This document shows, one piece after another, positions 16,148 to 45,895 of a stretch of DNA of 48,369 nt. How positions within the stretch are numbered: the first letter of the stretch is position 1; the number at the start of each line of letters is the position of its first letter. The position numbers and the translations under genes were made by a program. The notes beneath the pieces were generated by a model. That model saw only the letters and a list, made by a program, of their open reading frames with translations. It was not told where the DNA came from and did no database searches. The stretch lies in contig JBMOIA010000001.1 of assembly GCA_049317565.1 (NCBI GenBank), positions 1 through 48,369 of the forward strand, in the 5' to 3' direction. Source of the stretch: Terrimicrobiaceae bacterium. GTDB taxonomy: Bacteria; Verrucomicrobiota; Verrucomicrobiia; Chthoniobacterales; Terrimicrobiaceae.

Positions 16148-17479
16148 TTAGAGGCCGGTGGGGAAGGTCTCCTCGACCTCACCCGCCGTGCATAGCACCG
16201 AGCTTTCGAGCGGTTCGACCGCGCGGGTCGTGTCGATATGGAACACGGCGTCGAACTGTTCAGCCAGGGACGCGCTGAAGTAGTGGCTCCGGCGTTCAGT
16301 CTCGGGCTTGTAAACCACGCCGATGGCCCGCTCGAGCATCGGGCCGCGCAGCATGTCGGCAACAGCCGGGTGCTCGCGGAAATCCAGGTAGAACGCGGGC
16401 ATTTCCGAATGGTGGAATATCGCCTCGTAGCTCCTTGGAAGCGCGGGCCGCATTTCCCGGTGTTCCGCTGGACCGTCCCACTCGGAGGCTGCGGTGACGG
16501 TGCCCGAGTAGGTCGTGAAACCCACCGCGACCACCTCATCGCCGAAGCGCTCGCGGCAGAGTTGTCCGATGTTCAATTCGCCGCGCTGCGCCATCTCGGT
16601 CGCGTTCGCGTTGCCGATATGGGAATTGTGGGCCCAGATGACGATGCGGGATTTGTCGTGCAGGCGGTCAAGGTGGTCCATGAGGGCCAGCAGCGTGTCC
16701 ATCATGTGTCGGTCGCGGAGGTTCCAGGATTCTACATCTCCGCGCAGCATCGTGCGGTAGTATTTCTCCGCATTCGCGACGACGGTGGCGTTTTGCTGCG
16801 CTTGGAAAAAGTCCTCCTCCGCGGCCTCGCCGTCGAGGGCGAGGTAGGATGCGCGGCTGCGCCGCAGTTCCGCCAACGCGCCGACGACCTGGCGTTCGCA
16901 CCCGGCGGAAATGCCTGTGCCGGCCATGAGGCCGTAGCGGCGTGCATCGCCGCCGAAATGGTCGAAGCAGGCGTAACGCTGCATGCAATCGTGCGCCGCG
17001 GTCGGGTCGATGTGCGTCAGGTAATCAACCACCGCTTTCATGGATTCGTTGAGGCTGTAGATATCGAGGCCGTAGATGCCGCGACGCGAGGAGGGGCCGG
17101 TGATCGACGAGTTGTGGTCATGCAACCAGCCGGCGAAGTCGAGCATGTCGCTGTTGCGCCACATCCATTGCGGGAAACGCCGGAAGCCGGAGAGGGCATC
17201 GGAGGCGGTCGCGGGACCATCGAGGCCTTTGACGAATCGGTTCAGGTGCCAGGTATCCGGCCAATCGGCTTCCAAGGCGAGGGCGTGGAAGCCGAGTTCC
17301 GCGAACAGGCGCGCCGTGATCCGCGCGCGTGTTGAATAGAACTCGTGCGTGCCGTGGGTGGCCTCGCCGAGAAGGACGATGCGCGCTCCGGCGCAGCGCT
17401 CGAGGAGTGGATCGAAGTCGGCCGGCGACCCGTTCAGCGGGTGCGCGGCATGGCGTATGGTTTCGGGGTCAGGGTTCAT
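16148..17479 (-). CDS. erythromycin esterase family protein
   Basis: 443 aa. Blocks typical of the erythromycin-esterase/succinoglycan family are RIVLLGEATHGTHEFY, ALALEADWPD, FPQWMWRN and IVIWAHNSHIG. Confidence 0.8.
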   Translation of the reverse strand: MNPDPETIRHAAHPLNGSPADFDPLLERCAGARIVLLGEATHGTHEFYSTRARITARLFAELGFHALALEADWPDTWHLNRFVKGLDGPATASDALSGFRRFPQWMWRNSDMLDFAGWLHDHNSSITGPSSRRGIYGLDIYSLNESMKAVVDYLTHIDPTAAHDCMQRYACFDHFGGDARRYGLMAGTGISAGCERQVVGALAELRRSRASYLALDGEAAEEDFFQAQQNATVVANAEKYYRTMLRGDVESWNLRDRHMMDTLLALMDHLDRLHDKSRIVIWAHNSHIGNANATEMAQRGELNIGQLCRERFGDEVVAVGFTTYSGTVTAASEWDGPAEHREMRPALPRSYEAIFHHSEMPAFYLDFREHPAVADMLRGPMLERAIGVVYKPETERRSHYFSASLAEQFDAVFHIDTTRAVEPLESSVLCTAGEVEETFPTGL

Positions 17480-18141
17480 GCGTGGATTGGGCGGCGCAGT
17501 TTTGCGCCCGAGCGTAGAAGTTCGTAAACGGTGTCATCATCCGTCTGGGTGAAGTCGTCATACCATTGGCCGACGCCAAAGAAGTCGCCCGGCTGTATGA
17601 CCGCGACGAACTCGTCCACCAGGGGTTGCATTTCCCAGGCCACGGTGGGTGGAGCGGCAGGTGTGGCGACGACGATACGCTCCGCCTTTTGCTCGCGTAG
17701 AACCTGGATCGCGGCGCGCATGGTGGACCCGGTCGCAATCCCATCGTCCACGAGAATGACCGTCTGCCCCGCGACATGAAGCGGCGGGCGGTTTCCGCGG
17801 TAGAGCGCCTCGCGGCGCATGAGTTCCAGCGTTTCGCGGCGTTCCACCTCATCGAGAACCTCCGGGGTGATACGCAGGCTTTCGATAACGGCGCGGTTGA
17901 GGAAGCGGACGCCTCCACTGGCCACCGCGCCCATTGCGAGTTCCTCGTTGCCCGGCACACCGAGTTTCCGCACGAGCATCACATCGAGCGGAGCGCCGAG
18001 CGCACGCGCGACCTCATGGCCGACGGGAACGCCGCCGCGCGGCAGCGCGAGCACGACCACATCCGGTCGGTGCGCGTATTTTGAAAGTTTTCCGGAAAGG
18101 ATGCGTCCGGCTTCACGGCGGTTTTTGAATCTTCCGTTCAT
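17476..18141 (-). CDS. phosphoribosyltransferase family protein
   Basis: I chose the internal ATG at 18141 (MNGRFKNRREAG...), giving 221 aa. The PRPP-binding loop is VILVDDGIATGSTMRAA, and LALPRGGVPVG is also present. The stop overlaps the esterase start (ATGA). Confidence 0.8.
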   Translation of the reverse strand: MNGRFKNRREAGRILSGKLSKYAHRPDVVVLALPRGGVPVGHEVARALGAPLDVMLVRKLGVPGNEELAMGAVASGGVRFLNRAVIESLRITPEVLDEVERRETLELMRREALYRGNRPPLHVAGQTVILVDDGIATGSTMRAAIQVLREQKAERIVVATPAAPPTVAWEMQPLVDEFVAVIQPGDFFGVGQWYDDFTQTDDDTVYELLRSGAKLRRPIHA

Positions 18142-18146
18142 AAGTA

Positions 18147-18875
18147 TCAAACAGCGGCTGCGGTTTCGGGTTCCTCCACCTTTGCGAGGTGGCGGCCGAA
18201 CCATTTCACGGCGAGGTCGGCGACTTTTTCCAAGGCCCCCGGCTCCTCGAAGAGGTGCGTGGCACCGGGGACGACGGCCAACCGCCGCGCGCAGCGCAGG
18301 TGGTCGCAGGCCTCCTCGTTCAGTTTCAGGACGGCCTCGTCGTTTCCCCCGACGATAAACAGGGTAGGGGCCTGCACGCGCGAGAGGTGCTCGTAGGCGA
18401 GGTCGGGACGCCCGCCGCGCGAAACGATGGCCGAAATCTCCCCGTTCAGCGCGGCTGCGGCGGCAATTGCAGCGGCTGCGCCTGTGCTGGCCCCGAAGTA
18501 GCCGATCGGGTTGCCGTTTTTGAAAGGGTGCTTTTGCACATAGCGCGTTGCCGCGATGAGGCGGCTGGTGAGGAATCCGATGTCGAAGCGGAAGCGGGCG
18601 TCCCCGGAATCCTCGATCTCCTCGTCTGTGGTCAACAGATCGAGCAGGAGTGTTCCGAATCCCGCCTCCGCGAGTTTCGAGGCGACGAAGCGGTTCCGCC
18701 GGCTATGTCGGCTGCTTCCGCTGCCGTGGGCGAAAATGACAATGCCTGAAGCTTCGGCCGGCATGGTCCAGACGCCCTCGATGTGGGCGGCTCCGGCCGG
18801 GATTTGGACGATCCCGGAGATGCCGTCTTCGGGATCACGCAGGGAATTTTTTTGTTTTTCGGGTGTGTGTCTCAT
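18147..18875 (-). CDS. dienelactone hydrolase / alpha-beta hydrolase family protein
   Basis: 242 aa. Motifs are VIFAHGSGSSRHSRRN, the nucleophile elbow GYFGASTGAAAA, FIVGGNDE and PGATHLFEEPGAL. It lies 5 nt upstream of the PRTase gene. Confidence 0.8.
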   Translation of the reverse strand: MRHTPEKQKNSLRDPEDGISGIVQIPAGAAHIEGVWTMPAEASGIVIFAHGSGSSRHSRRNRFVASKLAEAGFGTLLLDLLTTDEEIEDSGDARFRFDIGFLTSRLIAATRYVQKHPFKNGNPIGYFGASTGAAAAIAAAAALNGEISAIVSRGGRPDLAYEHLSRVQAPTLFIVGGNDEAVLKLNEEACDHLRCARRLAVVPGATHLFEEPGALEKVADLAVKWFGRHLAKVEEPETAAAV

Positions 18876-18967
18876 GGTGGTTTGTTTGGCGGCGGCGTGT
18901 TTCCGCCGCCGGAGTTAATCCACAGTTTTGGGCGACGCGGCGAAATGGGGTGAACTCCCTGCGGGGT

Positions 18968-19264
18968 TCAGGCGGCGAAGCCGAAGCGGTGGCGGACTTC
19001 CGCGTAATCAAGGCCGAGCGACGCGCCGATCAGGGCCGCCGAGTGGCGCTCCGCGGCAATGCGGACCATGCGGTCCGAAGCATGCGGTTCAAGGGCGATC
19101 CCGTCGTGTTTGATTTCCAGGATGCGGGATCCGGAGGCCAGAAGCCGGGCGAGGAAGGTCTCCGCCTCGACCGGATCGTCCGTGTGGTGGACATCGATGC
19201 GTTTGTTGTGCTCCGGGAACACGGTGTAGCTGATGGCGAATTTGGCGAGCATTTGGTGGTTCAT
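18968..19264 (-). CDS. small hypothetical protein (98 aa)
   Basis: This is the C-terminal, non-degenerate part of the 550-aa track ORF, starting at the ATG at 19264. Sequence is MNHQMLAKFAISYTVFPEHNKRIDVHHTDDPVEAETFLARLLASGSRILEIKHDGIALEPHASDRMVRIAAERHSAALIGASLGLDYAEVRHRFGFAA. The rest of that ORF is antisense to the regulator gene. Confidence 0.5.
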   Translation of the reverse strand: MNHQMLAKFAISYTVFPEHNKRIDVHHTDDPVEAETFLARLLASGSRILEIKHDGIALEPHASDRMVRIAAERHSAALIGASLGLDYAEVRHRFGFAA

Positions 19265-19382
19265 TTTTGGAGGGCCAACGAACCCGCATCCGCGGCGGGT
19301 GTCGCCTCGGGTGAACGCCCCATGGTTGTGCAAAGGGCGGCAGGGAATTGTCCCGCCCCGCGCCAGACGGCGCACCACCACG

Positions 19383-19682
19383 ATGAAACAACGCAAACGG
19401 AAAAAACCCGCCCCGGCCCCGCAGCATGGGCACGAATCCCGCGAGGACCGCGCCCGCACGGCGGCCGGAAAAACCGCCAACAGCAAAGTCCGCAGCGAGG
19501 GGCGCGCCCTTGCCGCACTCGCAAGAACAGGCCGGACCATGACCGCCGCAGAGGCGGCCGAGGCGCGTCGCCTTGCGGCGCTCGGATGGAATGCTCCCAT
19601 GCGCAAAACCCGAATTTTGTCGGAACAGCCCCCACACCCGTGCGGGAACCCCGGCAGCAACCCGAAAGGCGGGTCCGATTGA
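19383..19682 (+). CDS. possible small basic protein (99 aa)
   Basis: Internal ATG of the track ORF 19233..19682. Sequence is MKQRKRKKPAPAP...SEGRALAALARTGRTMTAAEAAEARRLAALGWNA.... The A-R-A...MT..E..E.AR.AA..W pattern resembles small KGG/stress-type or phage-type basic proteins. The evidence is weak. Confidence 0.3.
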   Translation: MKQRKRKKPAPAPQHGHESREDRARTAAGKTANSKVRSEGRALAALARTGRTMTAAEAAEARRLAALGWNAPMRKTRILSEQPPHPCGNPGSNPKGGSD

Positions 19683-19716
19683 GGACCGCCGCCGAACAAG
19701 CCACACCAACAATACA

Positions 19717-20503
19717 CATGCCAAAACTCCAACTCTCGAAGCGCCCTAAAGCCCGGGCGGAAAAACCCGCCAAATCCATCCATGCCGCCAAGGGGGGGCG
19801 CCACGCGCCACCCGCGCGGACTCCCTCCAAGCAGGTCGCGGTCGGCATCGCCGACGATCACACATTCATCCGCGAGGCGCTGCGCTCCGTTCTGTCCGCC
19901 GATGACTCCATCCGGGTCGTCGGGGAAGCGGAGAACGGGCGGAAGGCCGTCGAAATGGCGGTGGCCGAGCGGCCGGATGTGATCCTCATGGATATCGGGA
20001 TGCCGCGGCTCAACGGCATCGAGGCCGCGCGCCAGATCCGCCAGTCCGCCCCGGGCGTGCGGGTGGTGCTTTTGACCGCGTTCGGGAACGACAACTACAT
20101 CCAGCAGGTCGTCGACGGCGACATCGACGCCTACATCCTCAAGGATTCGCCCGCGAGCCTCGTCACGCACGCGATCCGCGAGGTGGCGGACGGGAAGCGT
20201 TTTTACAGTCCGGTCATCTCGCACCGCATCCGGCGCCTGGCCTCGAACGGTCCTCAGGGCACCGTGCAGAAGCCCGCGGTGAAGCTCACGAGCCGCGAAG
20301 TCGAGGTCCTGCAACTGATCTCCGAGGGCGCGGCCAACAAGCAGATCGCCGGCGAATTGGACATCAGCATCAAGACGGTCGAAAAACACCGCCAGAACCT
20401 GATGGACAAACTCCATATCCACGACACGGCAAGCCTCACGCGCTACGCGATCTCGTCTGGCGTGATCGACAACATGGTCCAGCTTCCGCTGCCGCTCGGT
20501 TAG
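19717..20503 (+). CDS. orphan NarL/FixJ-family response regulator with a basic N-terminal tail
   Basis: The receiver is VAVGIADDHTFIREAL, VILMDIGMPRLNG and AYILKDS. The HTH is LTSREVEVLQLISEGAANKQIAGELDISIKTVEKHRQNLMDKL. The nearest in-frame start upstream of the receiver is ATG 19717, which adds about 39 Lys/Arg/Pro-rich residues. Confidence 0.85.
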
Positions 20504-25128: not shown

Positions 25129-25233
25129 GGCCGCGGCCTCAACGGGGCGAACGCATAGGAAGGTGAAGTGGGTAGCGGTGCTTCGGGGCATCACCCCATC
25201 GCGTCGGCGAAACCACTGGGCGACCGTCCGGCG

Positions 25234-27339
25234 ATGAAAACCATTCACATCACAGAAGAAGGCGGCCCGCACGGGCGTGGCAGTCTCACCCGAAAAATCC
25301 TCCTGCCCGGGGCCGTGCTGCTGCTGTTGGTGGCACTGGTTTGGCTTTTCCTCGCTGTGCGCGGCGCGGCGCAGGCGGGCGGCACCGTCACATTCCTGTT
25401 TTTCGACAGGAACGGGACGCAGTTGACGCCGTCGCAGGTCCGCGCGGTCTCGAACAACAACGGACTTGCCTACAACAGCGACTTCCTGCTGAACCCGTCG
25501 AATCTGCGGGCGATCACCAGCGGACCGCTCTACACCTCGGGCACGAACCTTGCGTTCAACATTCCTTCACAGGCTGTGGCATTCGCCATCAACTGGCCGA
25601 CGGTTCCCGGCGGGTTCCACCTCCTCATCCTCGACAATGGCGGGAGCGGCTTCTCCACCGGCGGCACGGTGAATTTCACCTACCAGGCGGCCCGCGATGT
25701 GAAGCGGCGCCTGGATGCGGCGCTCGCCGCGCGGCCAGACTACATCCGCTCGTCGAAGTTTTCCACCGCCTACGATGCCGCGTCGGTGCAGTTGAATTCC
25801 GTGGACGCCTACAGCCCCGAATCTGCCAAAGGCAAGGCGGGGCAACTGGCGCTCGACCAGCTTGGAGTCGCCTTCGACGCCCTCCTCGCGGAGCACGGCC
25901 CGGTTTTCGCCCGCAACAACAAGGCTACACTCACACCGTGGCTCGGGTTCACGATCGACACGGTTTCGAACTACCAGGCGAACCTCGATCTGGCCGCCAG
26001 TCTCACCGCGCCCTACGGGTGGATCCGGATTGTTTTCGATGCCGGCGTGGGGCCTTCCACATACTCCGGTCTCGTCACCTATGCGAAGTCGAAGGGGTTA
26101 AAAATCCTCGGGCAGCCGGTGGATTCGAGCTATGACCGCCAATACACGCGGGCTCAATACAAGCAGCGGTTCATCGATTTCATCACCGCATTCCCGCAGA
26201 TCGATGCGTGGGAAGTCGGCAACGAGGTGAACGGAACCTGGCTCAGCAGCGACATCGCCCTCCGCATCGCAGATGCCGCGGCGGAGGTGAAGGCGCGAGC
26301 CCCCGGCGCCCTTACGCTGGTCACCTTCTTCTGGCAGGTGAACACCGATACGGTGGCGAACTCGATGTTCAATTGGATTGCGAACAACCTTCCCGCCTCC
26401 ACGCGCGCAAACATCGATGTGGTGACAGTCTCGCAATACCAGGAGCAGGCGCCCATGGGCGTGGCGTTCGACCAGGTGATGAAAACCCTGCGCGCCGAGT
26501 TTCCGACGCAGAAGATCGGCCTGGGCGAACTCGGATACTGGATCGCGGGGCAAAGATTCTGGTGGGCCTACAATGAAACCGACCCCGCTGCGGCCAAATT
26601 GGCGATCTCCTCACAATACCACGGCGCGGCATTCGACTACGCCGGCAGCATCGGCGGAGTCTTCTGGTGGGAATTCATCACGGATTTCAAATCCAACACT
26701 GCCATGCAGCAGACGGTCACGCGCGTGCGGGACATCCTGAATTCCTCCGGTGGAACGCCAACACCCACACCAACGGCAACGCCGACACCAACACCAATGC
26801 CTTCCCCGTCGCCCAGTCCCACGGCAACGCCCTTGCCGAGCCCATCGCCCAGCCCGTCACCGAAACCCAGTCCTTCGCCGAGTCCGAGTCCGTCGCCCGG
26901 CGGAAATGTTTTCAACGGCACCTGGGCCGCAGTGGCGAAAATTCCCGCAACCGCGTCTTACAACGATCTCTACCAGCGCGTCCCGGTCACGCCCAACACG
27001 AGTGTCAGCGCGAGCGTGTGGGTGAAGGGCAGCGGATCGGTGGATCTGCAAATCTGGGGCGACTCCGCATGGACGCGGCGGCTCGGCGGCATTCGCATCA
27101 ACGCCACCGCGGGATGGACGAAGGTCACCACACCCGCATTCAACACCGGCAACCGCTCGCGCGTTTGGCTGAGCTTTGACAACGCCTACAGCAATGCCGC
27201 GGGCACGATGTATCTCGACGAGGTTTTCCTCGGAACGGCCGGCGGCTCGAACCGCGTGGCGAACCCGGGGTTCGAGTCAGGTGCGGTCTCATGGACCAGC
27301 ACGGCGCCAGCGGTCTTTTCGATCCAGCGGAACCCGTAG
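25234..27339 (+). CDS. membrane-anchored glycoside hydrolase-like protein (clan GH-A type TIM barrel) with PT/PS linker and C-terminal CBM4_9-like module
   Basis: I chose the ATG at 25234 (MKTIHITEEGG...). The TM anchor is ILLPGAVLLLLVALVWLFLAV. The GH-A-like acid/base block is IDAWEVGNEVNG and the nucleophile-like block is KIGLGELGYW. The 48-aa Pro/Thr/Ser linker is followed by a beta-sandwich-like tail (VWVKGSGSVDLQIWG, MYLDEVFLG, NPGFESG). Confidence 0.65.
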   Translation: MKTIHITEEGGPHGRGSLTRKILLPGAVLLLLVALVWLFLAVRGAAQAGGTVTFLFFDRNGTQLTPSQVRAVSNNNGLAYNSDFLLNPSNLRAITSGPLYTSGTNLAFNIPSQAVAFAINWPTVPGGFHLLILDNGGSGFSTGGTVNFTYQAARDVKRRLDAALAARPDYIRSSKFSTAYDAASVQLNSVDAYSPESAKGKAGQLALDQLGVAFDALLAEHGPVFARNNKATLTPWLGFTIDTVSNYQANLDLAASLTAPYGWIRIVFDAGVGPSTYSGLVTYAKSKGLKILGQPVDSSYDRQYTRAQYKQRFIDFITAFPQIDAWEVGNEVNGTWLSSDIALRIADAAAEVKARAPGALTLVTFFWQVNTDTVANSMFNWIANNLPASTRANIDVVTVSQYQEQAPMGVAFDQVMKTLRAEFPTQKIGLGELGYWIAGQRFWWAYNETDPAAAKLAISSQYHGAAFDYAGSIGGVFWWEFITDFKSNTAMQQTVTRVRDILNSSGGTPTPTPTATPTPTPMPSPSPSPTATPLPSPSPSPSPKPSPSPSPSPSPGGNVFNGTWAAVAKIPATASYNDLYQRVPVTPNTSVSASVWVKGSGSVDLQIWGDSAWTRRLGGIRINATAGWTKVTTPAFNTGNRSRVWLSFDNAYSNAAGTMYLDEVFLGTAGGSNRVANPGFESGAVSWTSTAPAVFSIQRNP
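26755..26898 (+). repeat. low-complexity coding repeat (PT/PS interdomain linker)
   Basis: It translates to TPTPTPTATPTPTPMPSPSPSPTATPLPSPSPSPSPKPSPSPSPSPSP. Confidence 0.9.
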
Positions 27340-27495
27340 CCGCCTGCATCCCGGGGGTTCACCCCATTTCGCGGGGAGGCTGAGCGGGCTTGGGTGTGCC
27401 TGTGGACGGGATGCCACAGGCACCCGCCAAAGCGGGGTGCGAAGTGGCGGCCGGCGCATCCCGCGGGAAACAAAAACGGCCGCCGAAAAACACCA

Positions 27496-27945
27496 ATGAA
27501 CACACTGATAAAATGGAATCCCTTTCGGGAATTTGAACTGATGAGCAGCCGGATGAACAACCTCCTCACGAGGTCGCTCCTTCCGGCTACCTTCGATGAG
27601 CCTTTTACATCGACCGAGTGGTGCCCGCTCGTCGATGTGGAGGAGAGCGACAAGGAATACACCATCAAGGCCGAGTTGCCGGAGGTGAAAAAAGAGAATG
27701 TGAAGGTCGAGCTGGAGAACGGCTCGATCCGGATCTCCGGGGAGCGAAAGCTCGAGAAGCAGGAGGCGGGTCGCCGCTTCCACCGCCTCGAGCGGAGCTA
27801 CGGCGCGTTCGAGCGCACATTCACCCTGCCGGAAGGCACCGAGCGCAAAGGCGTCTCGGCGGAGTTCAAGGACGGCCTGCTGAAGGTGCATTTGCCGAAA
27901 GGCGAATCTGCACAGCACAAGACACTGGCGATCCCGGTGTCCTGA
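27496..27945 (+). CDS. Hsp20/alpha-crystallin family small heat-shock protein
   Basis: Internal ATG at 27496, giving 149 aa. Typical alpha-crystallin-domain blocks are PLVDVEESDKEYTIKAELPEVKKENVKVELENGSIRISGER, ERSYGAFERTFTLP and AEFKDGLLKVHLPK. Confidence 0.9.
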   Translation: MNTLIKWNPFREFELMSSRMNNLLTRSLLPATFDEPFTSTEWCPLVDVEESDKEYTIKAELPEVKKENVKVELENGSIRISGERKLEKQEAGRRFHRLERSYGAFERTFTLPEGTERKGVSAEFKDGLLKVHLPKGESAQHKTLAIPVS

Positions 27946-28010: not shown

Positions 28011-29369
28011 ATGGAAGACATCCTGCAAACATTCCGCGACTACTATAAGGAGCCCGCCGTGCGTTCGCGCATTCTCGAGTTTCTCGGCGGGGAAACCCCC
28101 GGCAGCACGACCTGCGAATACATCACGGCGGACGGGGTTTCTTCGCCCGCGAGGCGGCCGCGCAGTCCGGAGGAACTTTTTCAACAACTCGATGCGGGGC
28201 TCGATATCTGCCGGTCGCTCTGGGACCGCGAATCACTGATCGCGCACCTCGATGTCGAATATGTGAATTTCGATTTCCCCGCGGAGGCCTACCTTGACCC
28301 GGATCGGAGCTTCGCACTTCAGGAACCGGTGGCGCGGGCGATCAACCGCGTCCTTTCCTTTTACGGTATCCGTGCGCTGCATGTCTTGAGCGGGCGAGGG
28401 CACCATTTCGCCTGGCGGATCGACCGCCGTTCCCCTGTTTTCGCCGAGCTGGAGGCGCTCGGAGCGAAGGTTTGCTCCGATGGTGCGCCGGAAGGCGGAG
28501 ATGCCGGGGTTGCGCGGGCTTTTGCCGGACTGGGGCTCGCGATGGAATTCCTCGCAAGGCTGGTCATCGAACTTTCCGCGCCGGACTGCCCGATTCCAGT
28601 CGAAATGACGGCGGTCGAGGTCGGTCCCTCGCAGCGCGGGCGGGAGATGGTTTCGATAGACATCTCGGAATACGCCGACCCGTTGCGGACACGCACGGTG
28701 CGCGTCCCGTTCAGCGCCTACCTGAAGCCCTGGCAACAACTTTACGCGGTCGGCGAGCAGAATATTTCCAGGATCGGGCCGATCATTTTCATCCCGATCG
28801 ACGGGGTGGACATCCGGCAGGGCATGGTGGCGATGAGGGATCCGCGGGCGGCCGCGCGTTTGGCGCAAACGATTTCCGCGGTGATTCCCGATGGCACCGG
28901 CGGGACGGCCGCGATGCTCCGGCACTACCGGAAGTCGGCACTCTGTCGCTTCCATGAATTTTTTCATTCCGCCCGGCATGATGCTCCGGGGATGTGGCAT
29001 GGCGGATACGACCGCACCCCGTTGGATGATTTGCCCGAGGGGGCGCGGCTGGCATTGAAGCATCCGAACGACCTGCTGCTGCGGCCATCGGGAATGCGCA
29101 TGGTGGTTGACGCCCTTCTGCAGCGTGGATGGCACCCAAGGCACATCGCGGGGCTGATCCGTTCCAAGTTCGAGCGGGACCATGGCTGGGGAACGCAGTG
29201 GGACGAATACTCGCCCGCACTGCGCGCCGATTTCTACGCGCGGATTTTCGCAGGAAGGCGGACGGGCGTTTGTGTGGAGGCCGGTGACATCCGTGCCGCG
29301 GAGGTGGCAGAGATCCCGCGCGGCCAAGCTGAACCTGCACTTGGGGGATCGGAGGTATTGAAGCTATGA
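28011..29369 (+). CDS. hypothetical protein with archaeo-eukaryotic primase (AEP / PrimPol)-like catalytic motifs
   Basis: Internal ATG at 28011, giving 452 aa. The ordered motifs are I = LIAHLDVEYVNFD (DxE), II = HVLSGRGHHFAWRI (sGxGxH), and III = MVSIDISEYADPLRTRTVRVPFSAYLK (hD...R.hR.P.S.h.K). The C-terminal region is Cys/His-containing and helical (ALCRFHEFFHSARHD). The fold call rests on motifs only. Confidence 0.5.
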   Translation: MEDILQTFRDYYKEPAVRSRILEFLGGETPGSTTCEYITADGVSSPARRPRSPEELFQQLDAGLDICRSLWDRESLIAHLDVEYVNFDFPAEAYLDPDRSFALQEPVARAINRVLSFYGIRALHVLSGRGHHFAWRIDRRSPVFAELEALGAKVCSDGAPEGGDAGVARAFAGLGLAMEFLARLVIELSAPDCPIPVEMTAVEVGPSQRGREMVSIDISEYADPLRTRTVRVPFSAYLKPWQQLYAVGEQNISRIGPIIFIPIDGVDIRQGMVAMRDPRAAARLAQTISAVIPDGTGGTAAMLRHYRKSALCRFHEFFHSARHDAPGMWHGGYDRTPLDDLPEGARLALKHPNDLLLRPSGMRMVVDALLQRGWHPRHIAGLIRSKFERDHGWGTQWDEYSPALRADFYARIFAGRRTGVCVEAGDIRAAEVAEIPRGQAEPALGGSEVLKL

Positions 29370-30232
29370 CGAGCTGGCCGATCGGGATTTCCACAGGATG
29401 TTTCCATCAGGTGCCGCTGAAGGATTGCCTCGAAACGATCCGCGCAAGCGGGTTCAGCCTCGTGGAGGTCGTTTTCTCGCCCGCGCACCTCGACTACCGC
29501 AACCGTGAAGCCGTTCGCGAAGCGGCACTGCGGCTCGAGGGGTTGGGTATGGAGGCGTTTTCCTTCCACGCGCCGTTTGCGAATGATATCGACATTTCCT
29601 CGCCCGACCTGGCGGCGCGCGAATACGCGCTCGACGAGATCCTGCGTGCGGTCGAGGCGGCCGCGGTGCTCGGGGTCCATTATTTTGTCATCCACCCCGG
29701 ACCGGAGAATGCCGACACACCGTCACGGGAGGAGCGGTTGTTGAGGATCGAAAATGTGGTCTCCGTGCTGAACCGGGTGGCGATGCGGTGCGCGGAGGCG
29801 GGGATACGGTGCGTGGTCGAAAACAAGTTGCCGCACCTGCTTTTCGGAAGTTCCAGCGACATTCTGTGGATCCTCGGCGCGGCCGAGAGCACGGAGATCG
29901 GCGCGTGCATGGACACCGGGCACGCCTTCCTCGCCGGGGACCTTTACAGTTTGGTTTACAAGCTCGCTCCGTATTTGCGCATGCTGCATGTGCACGACAA
30001 CAAGGGATTTTCCGACGACCACTTGCCGCCTGGAGAGGGAAGGATCGACTGGGGTGCATTCCTGCGGGAACTGGTGCTTGTGGGATTCCACGGGACAATG
30101 ATCCTCGAGATGGCGGGCGGGCCCGCCGATCCGCAGGAAATCATGGCACGGGCTCGACGAGGGAGGGCCTTTCTACGAAGCCACGCCAGACGCCTTGCTC
30201 TGGAACCCCCGCCCGTGGTGCCGCACCGGTAG
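29366..30232 (+). CDS. xylose-isomerase-like TIM-barrel protein (sugar phosphate isomerase/epimerase or AP-endonuclease-2/Endo IV fold)
   Basis: 288 aa. The ATG overlaps the upstream stop (ATGA). The metal-ligand pattern is typical of the fold: FSFHAPF, YFVIHPG, CVVENK, ACMDTGHAF, LHVHDNKGFSDDHLPPGEGRIDW and MILEM. Confidence 0.8.
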   Translation: MTSWPIGISTGCFHQVPLKDCLETIRASGFSLVEVVFSPAHLDYRNREAVREAALRLEGLGMEAFSFHAPFANDIDISSPDLAAREYALDEILRAVEAAAVLGVHYFVIHPGPENADTPSREERLLRIENVVSVLNRVAMRCAEAGIRCVVENKLPHLLFGSSSDILWILGAAESTEIGACMDTGHAFLAGDLYSLVYKLAPYLRMLHVHDNKGFSDDHLPPGEGRIDWGAFLRELVLVGFHGTMILEMAGGPADPQEIMARARRGRAFLRSHARRLALEPPPVVPHR

Positions 30233-30267: not shown

Positions 30268-33200
30268 TCACCTCACGCGCACGATTTGGCACTCGACGGA
30301 GTTTAAGCCCAAACCAAAGAGTTTTGCGGCTGCTTGGCGGTAAATTTCCATTTGCCCGGAGTAGCGCTCATTGATTTCCGAATCGGTTCCGTGGTCGGTT
30401 TTGAAGTCGTAGACTTTTGCGGAGGCGGGCGAACCGTCCTTGTTGAGTTGCGCAACAACCCTGTCGAAAACACCACTGACCCACTGCCCGTCCAGCTGCA
30501 CATCGAATGCCTGTTCCCGCCAGAGGGTGGCAGGGGAATTCGGGCGGGTGAAAGTCGCTCGCGCAGCATGGCTGGCCAGAAAGTTCCGCAACAGGCTTTC
30601 GGCCTCTGCGGATACATCCCCGGGAATCGAATTTTCTTCATCCAGCCATTCGATGCGGGCGAGCGCCGCATGGACCGCGGTGCCAAACTCGGCGGCGTCC
30701 AGTGCATACCCGGTCTGAGGGGAAGTTGTTTCCACGGAGGTCTTGGCTGAAGACGGCGAGATGGGCTTCGGGGTTCCGCACAGCGGTGCATGGAATTCCG
30801 GCTGGAGAGTGCAGTCACCGGCGGGTGATGCGATTTCGGGGTGGCCTTGGAACCAGCCCGCATCGCCGTAGGTGGTTGGAGAGTCTTTGAGCTGGATTGT
30901 CAGGAACCGGGCGAAGTTTTTGGAGTCGGATCCATCGGCCAGTTCGGTGGTGGCGACATACAGGGCTTTCTTGGCGCGGGTGAGCGCGACATACCACTTG
31001 CAGAGGCTGCCGTATTTGTTTTCAGCCTCTTGGATTTCGACTTGTCGGCGAAGGACCGCATCCTGGTCCGCAAAATCCTTGGCGGGCAAAAGGACTCCCC
31101 ATTGGACTCTCTTCGAATCGGGACCCAGTGCGATTTGGGTGCCATCGTTTGCCCGACTTTTTTTGTCCAATCCGGCCGCGATGACCATGTCGAATCCGAG
31201 GCCTTTGGATTGGTGGACCGTCATCAACCGGACAACTCCTGCGGCTTCGTTCCCGCGGGTTTGGCGGGATTCGATGAAGTGGAGAAATTCGGGGATTCCG
31301 TCGGAGGATCTGCGCGTCGAGTCGAATTCCTCCGCGGCGAGCAGGAAGGCTTCCGCGCGTTCCAGCAGGAAAGATTCCGCACCGGCGCAGGATTGGATCC
31401 ATGCGTGGATGGTGGCCGCGTAGCCGTGCTGCGCCAGGGTTGAGAGTGTTTGCCTGCGGAACTTCCATAGATCACCCAATCCCCATGTGGATGCGGCGGG
31501 GAAACCGGAGGCGACGGCGAGGGAGAGCGAGTCGTCCGGCGATGCGGCAACCCGCAGGGCGGCGAGGAGCGCGGCGCCGAGGGGATTGTCCACGCAGGGG
31601 TTCGAAGTTCCCTCCACCGCCAGTGGGATTCCATTTGATCGTAGGAGTGCTGCGAGGGCCGCGATGCCCTTGTTGTCGGGTTTGAGGACGGCGCAGGAAA
31701 GGCCGCGCCTCCAAGCCTGAGTTTGGTTGAGGATTTCGAGAATTTGTCGGTCGAGGGCGCTGCTTTCATCGTCGGCATCGCCTTCGGTTTCCGGAACCCG
31801 AACCCATGCCGCGCAGCCATTGATCTGGCGGGTTTTCGGTGAGGCGGTGTGCTCCGTCCAAGCCTTCGCCCACTTGTCCGCGGTGGCATCGGGAATTCCG
31901 AGGATGTCCTTGGTGGGCGAGAGGTCGCCGAAAGCCTGGTTCACAAAATCAAGGATCGCCGGGCAGGAGCGCCAGGACTGTGCGAGGGGAGGGGCGTCGT
32001 GGATGGTTGGTTGGATTTTGTTCACCTCGTCGAAAATCTCGAAAAACAAATCCGGATCGCCGCCGCGCCAGGAGTAGATCGCCTGCTTGGTATCTCCGAC
32101 ATAGAAGAAACTGCGGTTGCCTGTGGGGTCCATGAGGACTTCTTCGATGAAGGTGTTCAGGACCATCCACTGTGGGCGGCTCGTGTCCTGAAATTCATCG
32201 AGGAGCCAATGCTCGAATGTTTGGTCGATGCGGTATGCGGCGCTGGCGCGCCACGATTCGCCGCCGAGTGGATCGCCGGCCCTTCTGGCGAGGGAGTCCG
32301 TGATATCCGCGAATGTCACAGCGCCGGCCGAGCGGACGAGTGACGAGTATGCCTCCTCGAATTTCCCCATGAAGGCGTGGAGCGAGCGGCTGCGCGCCAA
32401 CAGGGACTCGAACTCGGGCTTGAGCGCGGCGCGGAGAAGTTCGAGGCGGGAGGCCCTGACGCGGGCATTGAGTTCGAGCCAGCCTGTTTTTTTCGCGGTG
32501 ATCCGGAGGGCGCCCGATTTCGGCTCTGCGCAAAGGCGGGACTTCACAAAGTTCGCGATTGCGAGATTCCAACGGGCGCTCGTGTCGAGGGTTTTCAGCA
32601 ATTCCAGGTTGGCCGCGAGGACTCCAACAGCCTCGTCAGAGAAATCCTCGTGGGTCTCCAAAACCGCGTCCATGAAGGCATCCGCCGCGGGCGAGACCTT
32701 GCCGGCGGCCAGAATCGCGCAACCCGAGGTGCCCCAGATCGAGGCTGCATTGCCCCAAACGACGAATGGCGGAGTTGCGAGAAATTTGGCGTGCAGGTTT
32801 TGGGTTTCCCGCAGAAGGCGCGTGAAAATATCGCGTTCGCCGTGGTTGCGGTTGATGCGGCGAAGAAGTTCCACGAAATCGTCAAGCGAGGCTGTGGATT
32901 CTCTTGAGAAGAGTTCCGCAAGGGTTCGCTCACGGGCGGAGTCGAGTTCCGCATCGCCTGCCACGCGGAAATCCTCAGCGAGCCCGGACTCGAGCGGGAA
33001 CGCGCGGGCGATGCGGGCGAAGAAGCTGTCGATTGTTCCCATGCCGAGTCGCCCGGGTTGCAGCGCGAGCTTTTCCAAAATGGCGCTGCATGCATCGGCA
33101 TCAAGGGTGCCGAGGTGCGGGGCTGCGCGGAGCGTGGCGAGTTTTTCGGGATCCAAAACCGCCCCGGCGAGCCGCGCGAAGACAGCCGAGAGAAATTCCC

Positions 33201-33336
33201 CGGCGGATTTCCGGGTGAATGTCAGAGCGGCGATCTTGCCGGGATTCACTCCCTGCGCGAGGAGTTGGATGACCCGGGTTGTGAGGGCATGCGTCTTGCC
33301 GCTTCCGGCATTGGCGATCAGGCGTTCGTTCCTCAT
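30268..33336 (-). CDS. addA: AddA-type UvrD-family helicase with C-terminal PD-(D/E)XK nuclease
   Basis: I chose the internal ATG at 33336 (MRNERLIANAGSGKTHALT...), giving 1022 aa. Helicase motifs are GSGKT, WLLDEFQDTS, VGDTKQAIYSWRGG, TVHQSKGLGFDMV and YVALTRAKKALYV. Nuclease motifs are GVFDRV, VYDFKTD and QMEIYRQAA. The ATGA overlap links it to the upstream gene. Confidence 0.85.
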   Translation of the reverse strand: MRNERLIANAGSGKTHALTTRVIQLLAQGVNPGKIAALTFTRKSAGEFLSAVFARLAGAVLDPEKLATLRAAPHLGTLDADACSAILEKLALQPGRLGMGTIDSFFARIARAFPLESGLAEDFRVAGDAELDSARERTLAELFSRESTASLDDFVELLRRINRNHGERDIFTRLLRETQNLHAKFLATPPFVVWGNAASIWGTSGCAILAAGKVSPAADAFMDAVLETHEDFSDEAVGVLAANLELLKTLDTSARWNLAIANFVKSRLCAEPKSGALRITAKKTGWLELNARVRASRLELLRAALKPEFESLLARSRSLHAFMGKFEEAYSSLVRSAGAVTFADITDSLARRAGDPLGGESWRASAAYRIDQTFEHWLLDEFQDTSRPQWMVLNTFIEEVLMDPTGNRSFFYVGDTKQAIYSWRGGDPDLFFEIFDEVNKIQPTIHDAPPLAQSWRSCPAILDFVNQAFGDLSPTKDILGIPDATADKWAKAWTEHTASPKTRQINGCAAWVRVPETEGDADDESSALDRQILEILNQTQAWRRGLSCAVLKPDNKGIAALAALLRSNGIPLAVEGTSNPCVDNPLGAALLAALRVAASPDDSLSLAVASGFPAASTWGLGDLWKFRRQTLSTLAQHGYAATIHAWIQSCAGAESFLLERAEAFLLAAEEFDSTRRSSDGIPEFLHFIESRQTRGNEAAGVVRLMTVHQSKGLGFDMVIAAGLDKKSRANDGTQIALGPDSKRVQWGVLLPAKDFADQDAVLRRQVEIQEAENKYGSLCKWYVALTRAKKALYVATTELADGSDSKNFARFLTIQLKDSPTTYGDAGWFQGHPEIASPAGDCTLQPEFHAPLCGTPKPISPSSAKTSVETTSPQTGYALDAAEFGTAVHAALARIEWLDEENSIPGDVSAEAESLLRNFLASHAARATFTRPNSPATLWREQAFDVQLDGQWVSGVFDRVVAQLNKDGSPASAKVYDFKTDHGTDSEINERYSGQMEIYRQAAAKLFGLGLNSVECQIVRVR

Positions 33337-36104
33337 TCCGTCCCCTTCAAAAACGCAATCGTTTCCTCTGTGAAGCAGGCCTCTGGTTTGCCGTTTAGGA
33401 AGATCGCCCCGAAGGGATCGTTCCAAGATCCGTTGAAGGGTTGCGGCGGCCAGAATCTTCCCTTGTTCACCAAGGCGGCGATTTCGGCGGCGCACCGCAT
33501 CGCCGACTCTATGGTGTCGTTGTTCAGTTCGGTGAATTCCTCCACGGCGGTCTCGGCTGGGTCGGCGGGCAGGGTAAAATAGGCCGTGGACGGAGGATGG
33601 TCGCCGATTTCCGGTCCATACCAGTGGCTGAGGATGTGGCGGTAGAGGGGGAGTTGCAGGTCCATCCAGCGCCGTTTTTTCGTTTTTCCGGACACGGTGT
33701 GGTCGAACTCCGCAGAGGGGAGCCATTCGCCATGCAACTGCGGGCCGAAATGTTTTTTTGAGGGCTTTGTTGCCTTGGGATGGGTCTTGTAGTCGAGGAC
33801 GCGCCAGGCGCCGGTGACTTCGTTTTTTTCGATGCGGTCGATTTTTCCCGACAGTTTGAGCGGACCGATCCGCAGGGCATCATCGCTCCCGGCGTCGAGT
33901 TTGCGCTCGACCGCGACGATGCGCCACCCTGCGGCGAATTGTTCCGCCTGGATGCGGGCGAACGCACGCAACCGGGCCTTTGCGGCTTCCATTTGGATGG
34001 TAATCGCCGGCGACGGATTCGGGCCGAATGCTCCGTGTGCGATTTCCCGGAGGTGCCCAAGGACGAGCAATTCGATCTTGGCTGGATCCGCTTCGTTCGG
34101 CGTCTCCCTGCCGAAACGCTCGAGTGCCTCGTGAATGAGTGTGCCGAAGCGCCTGGCGTCCATTTCGCGGGCGTCCGGGGTGAACGCGTCGAGCCATTGG
34201 ACTCTTTTCAGATAGTAGCGGAATGGGCAGGCGAGATATTCCGCAAAATCGGTAGGGCTGATTTTCTCCACCTTGCGGCGAAGATTTTCGGGGAGGCTCC
34301 AACGCCAGGCGCTTCCGCGCGGGGCGGGCGCCCTGCCGGGCGGTGGCTCGCCGAAAAGCTCCAAGACCCGCTCGGGGAGAGCTTCCCGTCCGCAACGCAG
34401 GAACAGACTGGAAGGCAATGCCGGGCTGCCCTCGGCGTCGAACCGGCTGAACGACACACGGAATTCAGCGGCCGACCGCGAGAGGAGTTGGCATTGGAAA
34501 AGGTAGGCGTCGCGGGCGAAGCGCGAGGCGTTGTCGGCGAGGCCCAAGGATTTCCTTTTGGAATCCGGCAGGAACGGGTGACCATCTACCGACGACGGCA
34601 GGATGCCTTCCACACACCCGCACAGGACGAGCCTCTTTGCTTCGATCCACGGGGCCTCGAGCCAGCCTTGCAATTCCACATCTCCCGGGTTCGAAGAGCT
34701 GAAGACGCTTTCGGCCTTCAGCGCGCGGGCGAACGCGTGGTCTGCTGCTTCCCTGCGGCCGCGGTAAAGCGGGGATTCCCGGATTGTGCGGTGGAGGGTT
34801 GCCACCTTCCGAGCCTCCTCCAAACCGTCGCCGCCGGATCGCCATGCTTTGGCGAGCAATTCGGGAGCGGCGAGTGGCAGGAGGGATTTTACCAAGGCGA
34901 CAAAAACCGCCGATTGCGCCCGGCGCTGGGATTTTTCCTTTTCGGGACCGGCTTCCACGGGAGCGAACGCGTCGGCTTGGGGGAAATCGGAAAGGACGGC
35001 TTCTCCGATCAGGTAATCGCAGACGGCGAGGCAGTCGTCGCTGGTGAGTTCCGATCCGCCGCGCACCAGGTTGTTGAAGCGCGGCAATTCGAGCAAGCGC
35101 CGCAGCGTGCGCAGTGCTCCTGAGGAACGGAAGCGCGTCCATTCGAGGGCGAGCACACCCGCTTCGCATGTTTCCAGACGCGTGCCGTTCGGCAGGAAGG
35201 CCGTGCCGCCTCGGGATTCCACGACGGTTCGGAAAGCGCTGCCGAGGTTCGGGTCGGCGAGAACCACGGCGTAATCGCCGGGCGGTTGCGCGGAGACGGC
35301 ACAGTCGATGGCCCGAGTTGCCTCGTCCTCCGCCGAACCCGCCATGGAAATCTGATGCGGTTCGATGTCGAGGCGGCATTCCGCCCATTCGACGGGATCC
35401 GGCCTGCCCCACGCATCGAATCCGCCGAACAGGCCTTCGGGCATCCACACGAGCACCTCGACCCGCACACCGAGGGATTCCAGTGATTGCGCATAATGCT
35501 GCGCGACCAACGGCAAATCCGGGATGCAGGCGATCACCAACCGTTGCAGTTCACCGGCGCGTGCGGGGCGATCCATTTGCGTCAATCGGGCTTCGTTAGG
35601 ATCCTCCAGCCCGCCATCCTCGAGCGCGGCGAGGTAGCATTCGTAAACCCGGGCGAGCACCTCCCATCGCGCCGAATCCCAGGCGCAAACTTCATGCACG
35701 CGCCCATCGCGCGGGCTCCGGCCGGCTTCCGCAAGGAGATCGCACAAGTCGCAAAGGACGCCGCCGCTTTTGTGCCGTGCCTGCTCGGAGTCCAACTTGG
35801 CGCCGGAAAAAAGGGGCTCAAGGAACGCGGGGTTCAGTTTTTCCAAAGCCAGGGCCCATGCACCCTCGCGTTCGAATCGTTCCGCGGTCCGCGTGCCACA
35901 GGGCAGCAGCGCCTGCATCGGCTGGGTGAAGCGCGGCGAGAGAACCCCTTTTTCAGCCAATGCCCGGCGAATCCGGCGGCCCGCACCCGCTGTGGGAAGC
36001 CACACCTCGAGACGGCTCAGGTCGTTGCTGCCGCCGCCGAGCAAGATCTCGGCGACCTGTGCGGCCAGCGGGGATGTTTTGCGCAGAAAAATCCGTTCGG
36101 CCAT
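33333..36104 (-). CDS. addB: AddB-type inactivated-helicase / PD-(D/E)XK nuclease subunit
   Basis: 923 aa. The P-loop is degenerate (LPTAGAGRRIRRAL). The C-terminal RecB-type nuclease has FGTLIHEALERF, LSGKIDRIE, WRVLDYKT and LQLPLYRHIL. It pairs with the AddA-like gene. Confidence 0.75.
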   Translation of the reverse strand: MAERIFLRKTSPLAAQVAEILLGGGSNDLSRLEVWLPTAGAGRRIRRALAEKGVLSPRFTQPMQALLPCGTRTAERFEREGAWALALEKLNPAFLEPLFSGAKLDSEQARHKSGGVLCDLCDLLAEAGRSPRDGRVHEVCAWDSARWEVLARVYECYLAALEDGGLEDPNEARLTQMDRPARAGELQRLVIACIPDLPLVAQHYAQSLESLGVRVEVLVWMPEGLFGGFDAWGRPDPVEWAECRLDIEPHQISMAGSAEDEATRAIDCAVSAQPPGDYAVVLADPNLGSAFRTVVESRGGTAFLPNGTRLETCEAGVLALEWTRFRSSGALRTLRRLLELPRFNNLVRGGSELTSDDCLAVCDYLIGEAVLSDFPQADAFAPVEAGPEKEKSQRRAQSAVFVALVKSLLPLAAPELLAKAWRSGGDGLEEARKVATLHRTIRESPLYRGRREAADHAFARALKAESVFSSSNPGDVELQGWLEAPWIEAKRLVLCGCVEGILPSSVDGHPFLPDSKRKSLGLADNASRFARDAYLFQCQLLSRSAAEFRVSFSRFDAEGSPALPSSLFLRCGREALPERVLELFGEPPPGRAPAPRGSAWRWSLPENLRRKVEKISPTDFAEYLACPFRYYLKRVQWLDAFTPDAREMDARRFGTLIHEALERFGRETPNEADPAKIELLVLGHLREIAHGAFGPNPSPAITIQMEAAKARLRAFARIQAEQFAAGWRIVAVERKLDAGSDDALRIGPLKLSGKIDRIEKNEVTGAWRVLDYKTHPKATKPSKKHFGPQLHGEWLPSAEFDHTVSGKTKKRRWMDLQLPLYRHILSHWYGPEIGDHPPSTAYFTLPADPAETAVEEFTELNNDTIESAMRCAAEIAALVNKGRFWPPQPFNGSWNDPFGAIFLNGKPEACFTEETIAFLKGTE

Positions 36105-43375: not shown

Positions 43376-43399
43376 GGAAGAATGGAGCTGGCGCCTGGA

Positions 43400-45823: not shown

Positions 45824-45895
45824 TGGGCAGTGAGGGGATCGAACCCCCGACCAATAGTGTGTAAAACTACCGCTCTACCGCTGAGCTAACTGCCC
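45824..45895 (-). tRNA. tRNA-Val (anticodon UAC)
   Basis: I hand-folded the reverse complement GGGCAGT-TA-GCTC-AGCGGTA-GAGC-G-GTAGT-TTTACAC-ACTAT-TGGTC-GGGGG-TTCGATC-CCCTC-ACTGCCC-A. It is 72 nt with a 7-bp acceptor stem, a GG in the D-loop and a TTCGATC T-loop. CCA is not encoded. Confidence 0.9.

Follow-up and report, generated by a model that had tools for sequence, protein, structure and literature searches.

A chromosomal gene pair of Verrucomicrobiota couples a divergent AEP-superfamily protein to an endonuclease IV-like TIM barrel: a candidate stress-linked repair unit

What might a bacterial chromosome gain from a gene for a protein of archaeo-eukaryotic primase (AEP) type whose stop codon overlaps the start of a TIM-barrel gene? 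The question is raised by 48,369 nucleotides (nt) of a Terrimicrobiaceae bacterium (GenBank assembly GCA_049317565.1, contig JBMOIA010000001.1, positions 1 to 48,369 of the forward strand), a stretch that is referred to here as the window. The G+C content of the window is 64%, and its nearest relatives are metagenome-assembled genomes of Verrucomicrobiota (Terrimicrobiaceae, Chthoniobacterales). Known bacterial AEPs are repair polymerases associated with LigD or LigC, replication primases of plasmids and phages, and CRISPR-associated enzymes. An earlier note, made from the letters of the window, had described two open reading frames (ORFs) coupled through an ATGA overlap; their coordinates, the overlap, and every motif quoted for ORF1 and ORF2 were found where the note had placed them. 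The analysis reported here describes ORF1, by its modelled fold and motifs, as a divergent AEP and ORF2 as an endonuclease IV (Endo IV)-like enzyme, which together form an obligate chromosomal unit. With a probability of roughly one half, this unit would act in stress-linked excision repair and gap filling. Its parts are the following (+ denotes the forward strand).

28011-29369, +: ORF1, 452 amino acids, member of an unannotated family of predicted AEPs (primase-polymerases)
ORF1 architecture (model): N-terminal helical segment; predicted AEP catalytic core, residues ~38-240; all-helical C-terminal domain, ~240-437; disordered tail
28245-28262, +: AEP motif I, HLDVEY (D81, E83), residues 79-84, on the long strand 75-86 of the model
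28386-28421, +: AEP motif II, LSGRGHHFAWRI, residues 126-137
28650-28727, +: AEP motif III and following segment, VSIDISEY at residues 214-221 and RTRTVRVPFSAYLK at residues 226-239 (D217, R228, R231, K239)
28728-29321, +: C-terminal helical domain of ORF1, with invariant PNDLLL and WHPRHIAGLIRSKFERD blocks
ORF1 residues 312-324: Cys/His cluster of the earlier note, CRFHEFFHSARHD
29366-29369, +: ATGA stop/start overlap of ORF1 and ORF2 (4 nt), translational coupling
29366-30232, +: ORF2, 288 amino acids, xylose-isomerase-like TIM barrel (PF01261) with nine ligands of Endo IV type
ORF2 motifs: HAPF 68-71, IHPG 109-112, VENK 151-154, DTGH 183-186
ORF2 motifs, later part: HVHDN 208-212, DDH 217-219, PGEG 222-225, LEM 247-249

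The N-terminus of homologues coincides with the ATG of ORF1 at 28011. ORF1 has no match to any model of Pfam, NCBIfam, PADLOC or PHROGs, and its profile found nothing among PDB sequences. Its family comprises 1207 proteins at E <= 1e-3 in a clustered protein collection, all called 'hypothetical' wherever they are named, and an exhaustive HMMER search yields 649 clusters at 50% identity, 259 of them with E <= 1e-30; relatives are present in 413 of 185,579 species genomes. The AlphaFold2 model of ORF1, which was built without templates from a 38-sequence alignment, has a pLDDT (predicted local distance difference test) of 89.9 and a pTM (predicted template-modelling score) of 0.90, with disorder confined to residues 438-452. 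When this model was compared with the PDB by Foldseek, as the earlier note had proposed, the top eight matches were Mycobacterium smegmatis Prim-PolC (6sa0, 6sa1, 5op0) and the M. tuberculosis LigD polymerase domain (PolDom; 2r9l, 4mky), at E-values of 4e-4 to 1e-2 and a probability of 1.00. These are followed by the CRISPR-associated Prim-Pol (CAPP), pRN1 primase, AsfvPrimPol, archaeal PriS, and human primase, while the matches in BFVD, a library of viral structures, are phage primase-polymerase/helicase proteins. AEP structures rank first in both libraries, which bears out the reading of three AEP motifs in ORF1 with which the earlier note began.

The AEP superfamily is defined by an (alpha-beta)2 unit and an RNA-recognition-motif (RRM)-like unit with the motifs hhhDhD/E, sxH, and hD/E, of which I and III supply metal ligands and II binds the nucleotide (PMC4538821). 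The ORF1 model runs from strand 75-86 (motif I) through helix 97-118, strand 123-126, motif II, strand 130-138, and several helices to strand 212-217 (motif III), an order that is fitting for an RRM-like palm in the authors' reading of the model, as opposed to a tool's output. Conservation was counted over 95 family representatives that are 27-48% identical to ORF1, and the best-conserved positions are the AEP motif residues, including R228 and R231; the earlier note had allowed for coincidental motifs, and this degree of retention speaks against them. In motif I (AHLDVE in the window), D81 is present in 90 of the 95, and position 83 is E in 58 and D in 32. Motif II reads SGRGHH in the window against a family consensus of (T/S)G(R/Q)G(Y/H)H, with G130 in all 95 and H132 in 89. 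D217 of motif III (SID in the window), which closes strand 212-217, is likewise found in 95/95, and R228 and R231 follow with 91 and 89. According to the modelled fold and these motifs, ORF1 is a divergent member of the AEP superfamily that stands outside the LigD-Pol/Prim-PolC family proper; its D-x-E / G-x-H / D centre is predicted from motif order and fold.

ORF2 matches PF01261 with an E-value of 3.9e-40 over 247 of 249 model positions, and stays under every curated NCBIfam cut-off. The fructoselysine 3-epimerase model gives 43.7 bits against a cut-off of 305, and the sugar equivalogs as a group (fructoselysine 3-epimerase, hydroxypyruvate isomerase, IolO, IolE, psicose epimerase, and others) give 13-44 bits against cut-offs of 200-450. 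By sequence, the nearest solved structures are MJ1311 (3wqo, 1e-16) and TTHB071 (3ayt, 1e-12), followed by ketose 3-epimerases (~1e-8) and Escherichia coli Nfo (7e-4); the literature treats MJ1311 and TTHB071 only as predicted abasic-site (AP)-endonuclease homologues. On the Thermus thermophilus plasmid pHC11 (L084, 4965-9185), a TIM-barrel gene of the TTHB071 type adjoins surE, with an Argonaute gene close by and no AEP gene nearby.

ORF2 and E. coli Nfo are 28% identical over 178 residues (Nfo reference sequence checked against 1qtw). BLAST pairs H110, E152, D183, H186, H208, D217, and H219 of ORF2 with H109, E145, D179, H182, H216, D229, and H231 of Nfo, respectively, and MAFFT aligns E248 with Nfo E261. 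The ninth ligand, H68 of HAPF, matches Nfo H69 by motif only, as the automatic alignment set H68 at Nfo H60; the residues that follow HAPF are similar to the Endo IV pattern. Each of the nine ligands (H68, H110, E152, D183, H186, H208, D217, H219, E248) is at least 97% conserved among 59 partner sequences. The earlier note had recognized a metal-ligand pattern common to sugar isomerases and Endo IV, and conservation now extends to the complete Endo IV set. Ketose epimerases usually have four metal ligands. Because the full nine-ligand set is kept and no curated cut-off is passed, ORF2 is best described, on sequence grounds, as an Endo IV-like multinuclear metallo-phosphoesterase of its own subfamily. 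A multinuclear iron oxidase (MNIO/DUF692), which belongs to the same TIM clan, was considered for ORF2 and set aside, as PF05114 gave no match and PF01261 alone was reported at E-values up to 1.

How firmly the two genes are joined could be followed in 83 relative loci, 82 of which are distinct. In all 82, the AEP gene is followed directly by the TIM gene on the same strand, and the ORFs overlap in 79, 38 of these with the identical 4-nt overlap. Identity to the window pair rises and falls in step for the AEP and the TIM barrel (r = 0.90). AEP and TIM barrel are fused in P0128 (747 amino acids) and P0135 (724 amino acids), which are only 37.6% identical to each other and therefore place the fused form in two deep lineages; a frameshift artefact may, strictly, account for the fusion. 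In another relative, P0229 (612 amino acids), an N-terminal CBS pair is fused to the AEP. The earlier note had left the conservation of the pair in question. Present in every relative locus and joined in natural fusions, ORF1 and ORF2 are an obligate chromosomal unit. As labelled, the relative loci come mostly from Verrucomicrobiota, with some from Planctomycetota, Fibrobacterota, and Acidobacteriota, and a few from bins labelled otherwise. A cultured carrier among the Planctomycetota is Roseiconus nitratireducens JC645 (L082), and carriers also include freshwater Terrimicrobiaceae and Candidatus Udaeobacter, the latter reported to be very abundant in soils.

Homologues of ORF1 were found by tblastn in 0 of 72,556 plasmids and 0 of 50,697 phages, and a mobile-element or defence-system AEP was rejected, there being no plasmid, phage, PADLOC or PHROGs match. 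Clustering of the neighbours in the 82 loci returned hsp20 in 42 and every other gene in at most 14. In agreement with the earlier note, which saw no Ku, ligase or integrase gene nearby, neither ligase nor Ku is among the 9 clusters checked by Pfam out of the top 40 (at least 6 of 82 loci each), and no integrase or helicase is among the neighbour clusters examined. A set of epimerase, family-2 glycosyltransferase (GT2), UDP-glucose dehydrogenase, and glycoside hydrolase (GH16) genes lies downstream of the pair in only ~6 of 82 loci. A polysaccharide operon, which the first two relative loci had brought to mind, was rejected after the clustering. The earlier note had weighed a TIM barrel that groups with a sugar-metabolic family inside a carbohydrate operon; with no equivalog cut-off passed and carbohydrate genes in ~6 of 82 loci, such a grouping did not emerge. 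The immediate surroundings in the window contain the following (- denotes the reverse strand).

27496-27945, +: hsp20, small heat-shock protein (Pfam HSP20, E 1.6e-24)
27353-27369, +: promoter-like element GGGGGTTCACCCCATTT, of the form GG-N5-10-CCC(C/T)AT, 134 nt upstream of the hsp20 ATG
18943-18959, -: second copy of the element, GGGAGTTCACCCCATTT, ~68 nt upstream of an operon for a dienelactone hydrolase, a phosphoribosyltransferase, and an erythromycin-esterase-like protein (18875 down to 16148)
30268-36104, -: AddA-like (UvrD helicase and PD-(D/E)XK nuclease) and AddB-like genes, convergent on ORF2 across a 35-nt gap

The earlier note was right that AddAB genes lie convergently next door in the window; none of the relative loci has AddA next to the pair, and this adjacency was rejected as functional evidence. 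The hsp20 gene recurs 60-100 nt upstream of the AEP gene in ~35 relative loci and usually leads the unit in the window clade. The 65-nt spacer between hsp20 and ORF1 holds no terminator-like site, and hsp20 probably opens an hsp20-AEP-TIM operon in this clade. In 35 of 37 near-clade loci, the GG-N5-10-CCC(C/T)AT element is found no more than 200 nt ahead of the gene that opens the unit, against a background of 0.047 per 200 nt; this first gene is hsp20 where present and otherwise the AEP gene, in which case the element stands at about -50 or -82. Its core is akin to the sigma-32 -10 box CCCCATnT. A scan for sigma-70 promoters returned nothing around the operon. The 12-mer TTCACCCCATTT occurs exactly twice in the window (the second time at 18943-18954 on the minus strand) where 0.00 occurrences are expected, and the two copies look like a shared sigma-32-like promoter element that defines a small regulon. 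Both window copies read GG(G/A)GTTCACCCCATTT. Since the unit shares a conserved heat-shock-type element with hsp20, it appears to be part of a response to stress or to a non-growing state.

Loci of the Udaeobacter type (L044, L046, L056) have another conserved element, TTTG(A/C)GCAG(T/C)AAAACGCAA-N6-GGCTAGT, ~60-100 nt upstream of the AEP gene; with its TTGCG...CGCAA inverted repeat, it may be a putative binding site for a regulator. Genes for a tandem universal stress protein and an erythromycin-esterase-like protein recur beside the pair in such loci, as do those for a P-type ATPase, a phosphoribosyltransferase, a CBS-pair protein, and a LuxR-type response regulator. In composition, the genes near the pair (16148-20503 of the window; L042-L080) resemble the mycobacterial DosR dormancy regulon. 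Dienelactone hydrolase and HSP20 genes also figure among these DosR-like genes. Rv2030c, Rv2626c, and HspX of that regulon are erythromycin-esterase-like, CBS, and HSP20 proteins, respectively. Universal stress proteins, ctpF, Rv0571c (a phosphoribosyltransferase), and Rv2626c (hrp1) are listed in a table of DosR-related genes and upstream sites (PMC7753917). From this gene context we infer that the pair belongs to a stress or non-growth neighbourhood.

The C-terminal part of ORF1 (residues 240-452) has a pLDDT of 77.5 when it is modelled alone, and a likeness to PriCT, PriL or helix-bundle domains, which had been expected, did not turn up in a PDB search (best E 3.1). The Cys/His cluster to which the earlier note had drawn attention is present and is not conserved: most relatives have Arg in place of C312 and Tyr in place of H319, and only H315 is invariant, which led to the rejection of a zinc site there. 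Most of the family outside the window clade has four cysteines elsewhere, one in an 'LPxC' just before PNDLLL and three in a C-x8-C-x3-5-C tail. Both parts are present in 68 sequences and neither in 119, and the triad occurs alone in 0. The cysteines co-vary as a unit, and this pattern suggests one metal or iron-sulfur (Fe-S) site that was lost in the window clade; the window protein lacks it at the corresponding places, 29030-29045 (DLPEG) and the tail at 29265-29366. The relatives in which the cysteines were traced include P0111-P0120, P0128, and P0229.

Taken as one system, ORF1 and ORF2 would be an obligate, coupled unit of two enzymes whose target is damaged nucleic acid (most probably DNA) and which serves excision repair and gap filling under stress; the odds of this reading are about even. 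ORF2, as a tri-metal phosphoesterase, would cut abasic sites and/or strip blocking ends of the 3'-phosphate type. ORF1 would then extend the resulting 3'-OH and fill the short gap, perhaps with ribonucleotides in the manner of LigD-Pol and Prim-PolC. The nick would be sealed by a housekeeping ligase, which is proposed because the pair is unaccompanied by a ligase or Ku gene. In the window clade, the unit would be transcribed with hsp20 from the heat-shock-type promoter element. The load of abasic sites rises under heat and oxidative stress, which fits the hsp20 linkage of the pair. The analogy is drawn from mycobacteria, in which Prim-PolC/LigC uses ribonucleotides to fill gaps of 1-3 nt in stationary phase; LigC was co-purified with Endo IV, which was also the gap-processing enzyme that served the reconstituted repair best (PMC5663958). 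The DNA substrate, the order of the reactions, the nucleotide preference, and a physical complex of the two proteins are all inferred. The fold, the linkage, and the TIM-barrel ligands uphold the chromosomal two-gene module for end processing and gap filling that the earlier note had put forward, and its role on DNA is proposed by analogy.

Several results weigh against this account. None of the 38 ORF1 family members that were scanned singly against Pfam gave a meaningful match, and none matched a Pfam or NCBIfam AEP model. In hhalign comparisons with the M. tuberculosis LigD PolDom (identical in sequence to 2iru/2r9l, entered alone and as a profile of 20 sequences), the ORF1 family reached a non-significant probability of 0.9-1.2%, and the alignment is limited to motif II (SGSKGLH in LigD-Pol) and the helix that precedes it. 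The single-sequence run set LigD motif I against 'SFALQ' of ORF1; according to the profile run and the secondary structure of the model, this is the helix after motif I, and it is therefore not read as a loss of the catalytic Asp. Because the sequence-profile comparison is non-significant, AEP membership rests on fold and motifs. The TM (template-modelling) scores of the top eight matches are moderate (0.29-0.34 by query and 0.42-0.47 by target, root-mean-square deviation 7-12 A), and CAPP (7nqd_A), at rank 11, has 0.55 by target. The clustering of D81, E83, and D217 in space is putative, and the C-terminal domain is without a structural relative in the PDB. The best NCBIfam score of ORF2 is to CbiR (NF041277; 57.1 bits, cut-off 105), the nfo model (TIGR00587) gives 34.9 bits against a cut-off of 129.65, and the scores with the PRK01060 models likewise fall far short of the cut-offs. 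Lastly, the neighbour clusters of the 82 loci show no ligase, Ku, glycosylase or other DNA-repair gene that consistently adjoins the pair.

Could such results mean that ORF1 is no AEP at all, with fortuitous motifs and a generic palm/RRM likeness, and that ORF2 is an ordinary sugar phosphate isomerase/epimerase? The relatives of ORF2 are so named in databases, ketose 3-epimerases match it at ~1e-8, sequence-profile searches fail to reach AEPs, and most TM-scores lie below 0.5. Yet AEPs provide the whole PDB top eight and most of the matches of appreciable probability in both libraries, conservation across deep divergence is highest at the three motif positions, nine Endo IV ligands are kept where epimerases usually have four, and no sugar-enzyme equivalog cut-off is met, all of which makes coincidence very improbable. 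A substrate other than DNA, be it RNA ends or a nucleotide-containing small molecule or polymer, would make ORF2 a CbiR-like phosphodiesterase and ORF1 a nucleotidyltransferase. The higher score of CbiR than of nfo (57.1 and 34.9 bits) points this way, as do the polysaccharide genes downstream in a few relatives, the phosphoribosyltransferase neighbours, the CBS pair of P0229, the nucleotidase SurE beside TTHB071 in Thermus, and the missing conserved repair neighbours. CBS domains bind adenine nucleotides. CbiR itself demonstrates that PF01261 includes phosphodiesterases that act off DNA, on a cofactor (PMC7733943). Against this stand the CbiR score, which is far under its cut-off of 105, the Pfam-checked recurrent neighbour clusters, which contain no cobamide gene, the rarity of carbohydrate genes (~6 of 82 loci), and the retention of all nine Endo IV ligands with an Endo IV-like segment after HAPF. 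Moreover, all characterized AEPs polymerize nucleotides on nucleic acid (PMC4538821), and a non-DNA substrate is unlikely on balance.

A related and decidedly unlikely idea is that the two proteins are a self-contained stress-response system and form one complex of an AEP-fold nucleotidyltransferase and an Endo IV-fold tri-metal phosphodiesterase, which would act beyond canonical DNA breaks on damaged RNA ends or on a nucleotide-linked small molecule or polymer that is produced or remodelled in dormancy, under control of the four-cysteine site in most of the family and of the fused CBS pair in some. Finally, ORF1 may re-prime or bypass lesions as PrimPol does, as a damage-tolerance or restart primase for which ORF2 would clear away the abasic or blocked lesion. 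The four-cysteine site would then be the counterpart of the PrimPol/UL52 zinc finger or of the PriL Fe-S cluster, and the window clade would be polymerase-only. The zinc finger of PrimPol is needed for priming and not for polymerase activity (PMC4538821), four co-varying cysteines are present in the C-terminal region of most family members, and Foldseek also matches the priming AEPs pRN1, AsfvPrimPol, and PriS and phage primase-helicases. The best structural matches, however, are repair gap-fillers; the C-terminal domain is unlike PriCT, PriL, and helix-bundle domains, no helicase or replication genes are near the pair, and the window protein itself has no cysteine site. A primase is thus rather unlikely, and repair by excision and gap filling is retained as the preferred account of the pair.

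Elsewhere in the window, the following features were recorded.

7223-16125: exopolysaccharide-type locus (BcsB-like protein, DUF2334 proteins, TPR protein, family-2 glycosyltransferase with MshEN, UDP-GlcNAc 2-epimerase)
25168-27339, +: 723-amino-acid protein without a Pfam domain; hydrophobic segment near the N-terminus and Pro/Thr/Ser-rich linker; 7 close relatives also have it upstream of hsp20
41231-44128, -: Wzz/tyrosine-kinase-like chain-length determinant and Poly_export/SLBB polysaccharide exporter
45824-45895, -: tRNA gene, the sole Rfam match in the window

The MshEN domain binds cyclic di-GMP, and the 723-amino-acid protein may be a secreted glycoside-hydrolase-like protein.

If the repair account is true, heat-shock or stress control would govern a minimal 'cut and fill' cassette, AEP evolution would gain a new family, and the pair would be a testable case of DNA patching by non-growing bacteria. 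It would also give a function to ~1000 annotations as 'hypothetical protein' or 'sugar phosphate isomerase', and both proteins are small and soluble-looking. Should the non-canonical substrate prove true instead, ORF1 would be the first AEP that works outside DNA replication and repair. In contrast to the known bacterial AEPs, the ORF1 family is chromosomal, is undetected by current domain libraries, and is tied to an Endo IV-like enzyme instead of a ligase or Ku. A 2018 survey of bacterial AEPs covers mobile-element families only and concludes that most other bacterial AEPs ride on mobile elements (PMC5862659). A literature search found no description of a pair of AEP and PF01261 proteins; the 2005 AEP survey of Iyer et al. 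was beyond its reach, and an earlier mention there is possible.

How, then, does the pair compare with known systems? Several proteins share single traits with it. ORF2 has the PF01261 TIM barrel and the nine tri-metal ligands in common with Endo IV (Nfo/Apn1), MJ1311, and TTHB071, of which the last is encoded by a Thermus gene without an AEP neighbour. CbiR, its best NCBIfam match, is a PF01261 phosphodiesterase first described in a verrucomicrobium and encoded among cobamide genes (PMC7733943), whereas the ORF2 gene always stands behind an AEP gene. PrimPol and the herpesvirus UL52-type AEPs, which have a C-terminal zinc finger, and the Fe-S domain of PriL can be compared with ORF1 for its AEP core and the C-terminal region behind it, with a four-cysteine site in most ORF1 family members; the cysteine spacing and the helical domain of the ORF1 family show no detectable relation to theirs, and the window protein is without the site.

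LigD, with polymerase, 3'-phosphoesterase, and ligase in one protein and Ku as its partner, likewise joins an AEP to a metal-dependent phosphoesterase that cleans 3' ends, and its PolDom is among the top fold matches of ORF1. The fold of the LigD phosphoesterase differs from a TIM barrel. No ligase or Ku accompanies ORF1 and ORF2, and PF21686 (LigD_Prim-Pol) and PF01896, which are present in every LigD relative listed, are absent from ORF1 and its relatives. The conserved N-terminal LTNxDKVLYP of LigD-Pol is also absent from ORF1, whose N-terminus is helical (MEDILQTFRDYYKEPAVRSRILEFLGG). In LigD-Pol, this segment supplies the lysines of the 5'-phosphate pocket.

The closest counterpart is Prim-PolC/LigC with Endo IV (PMC5663958, PMC7442782): it includes the best structural match of ORF1, combines AEP gap filling with an Endo IV-type processor, and is linked to stress and stationary phase. 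Prim-PolC has no detectable sequence similarity to ORF1, which carries a large, unrelated C-terminal helical domain, and ORF2 is no orthodox Nfo. The pair lacks an accompanying gene for a LigC-type ligase, and its nuclease is genetically obligate (adjacent, overlapping, and sometimes fused) where the Endo IV interactor is separately encoded. An AEP polymerase with an end-processing phosphoesterase for repair is a kind of system that is already known; what appear to be new are the AEP family, the obligate Endo IV-like partner, and the ligase- and Ku-free, stress-linked architecture.

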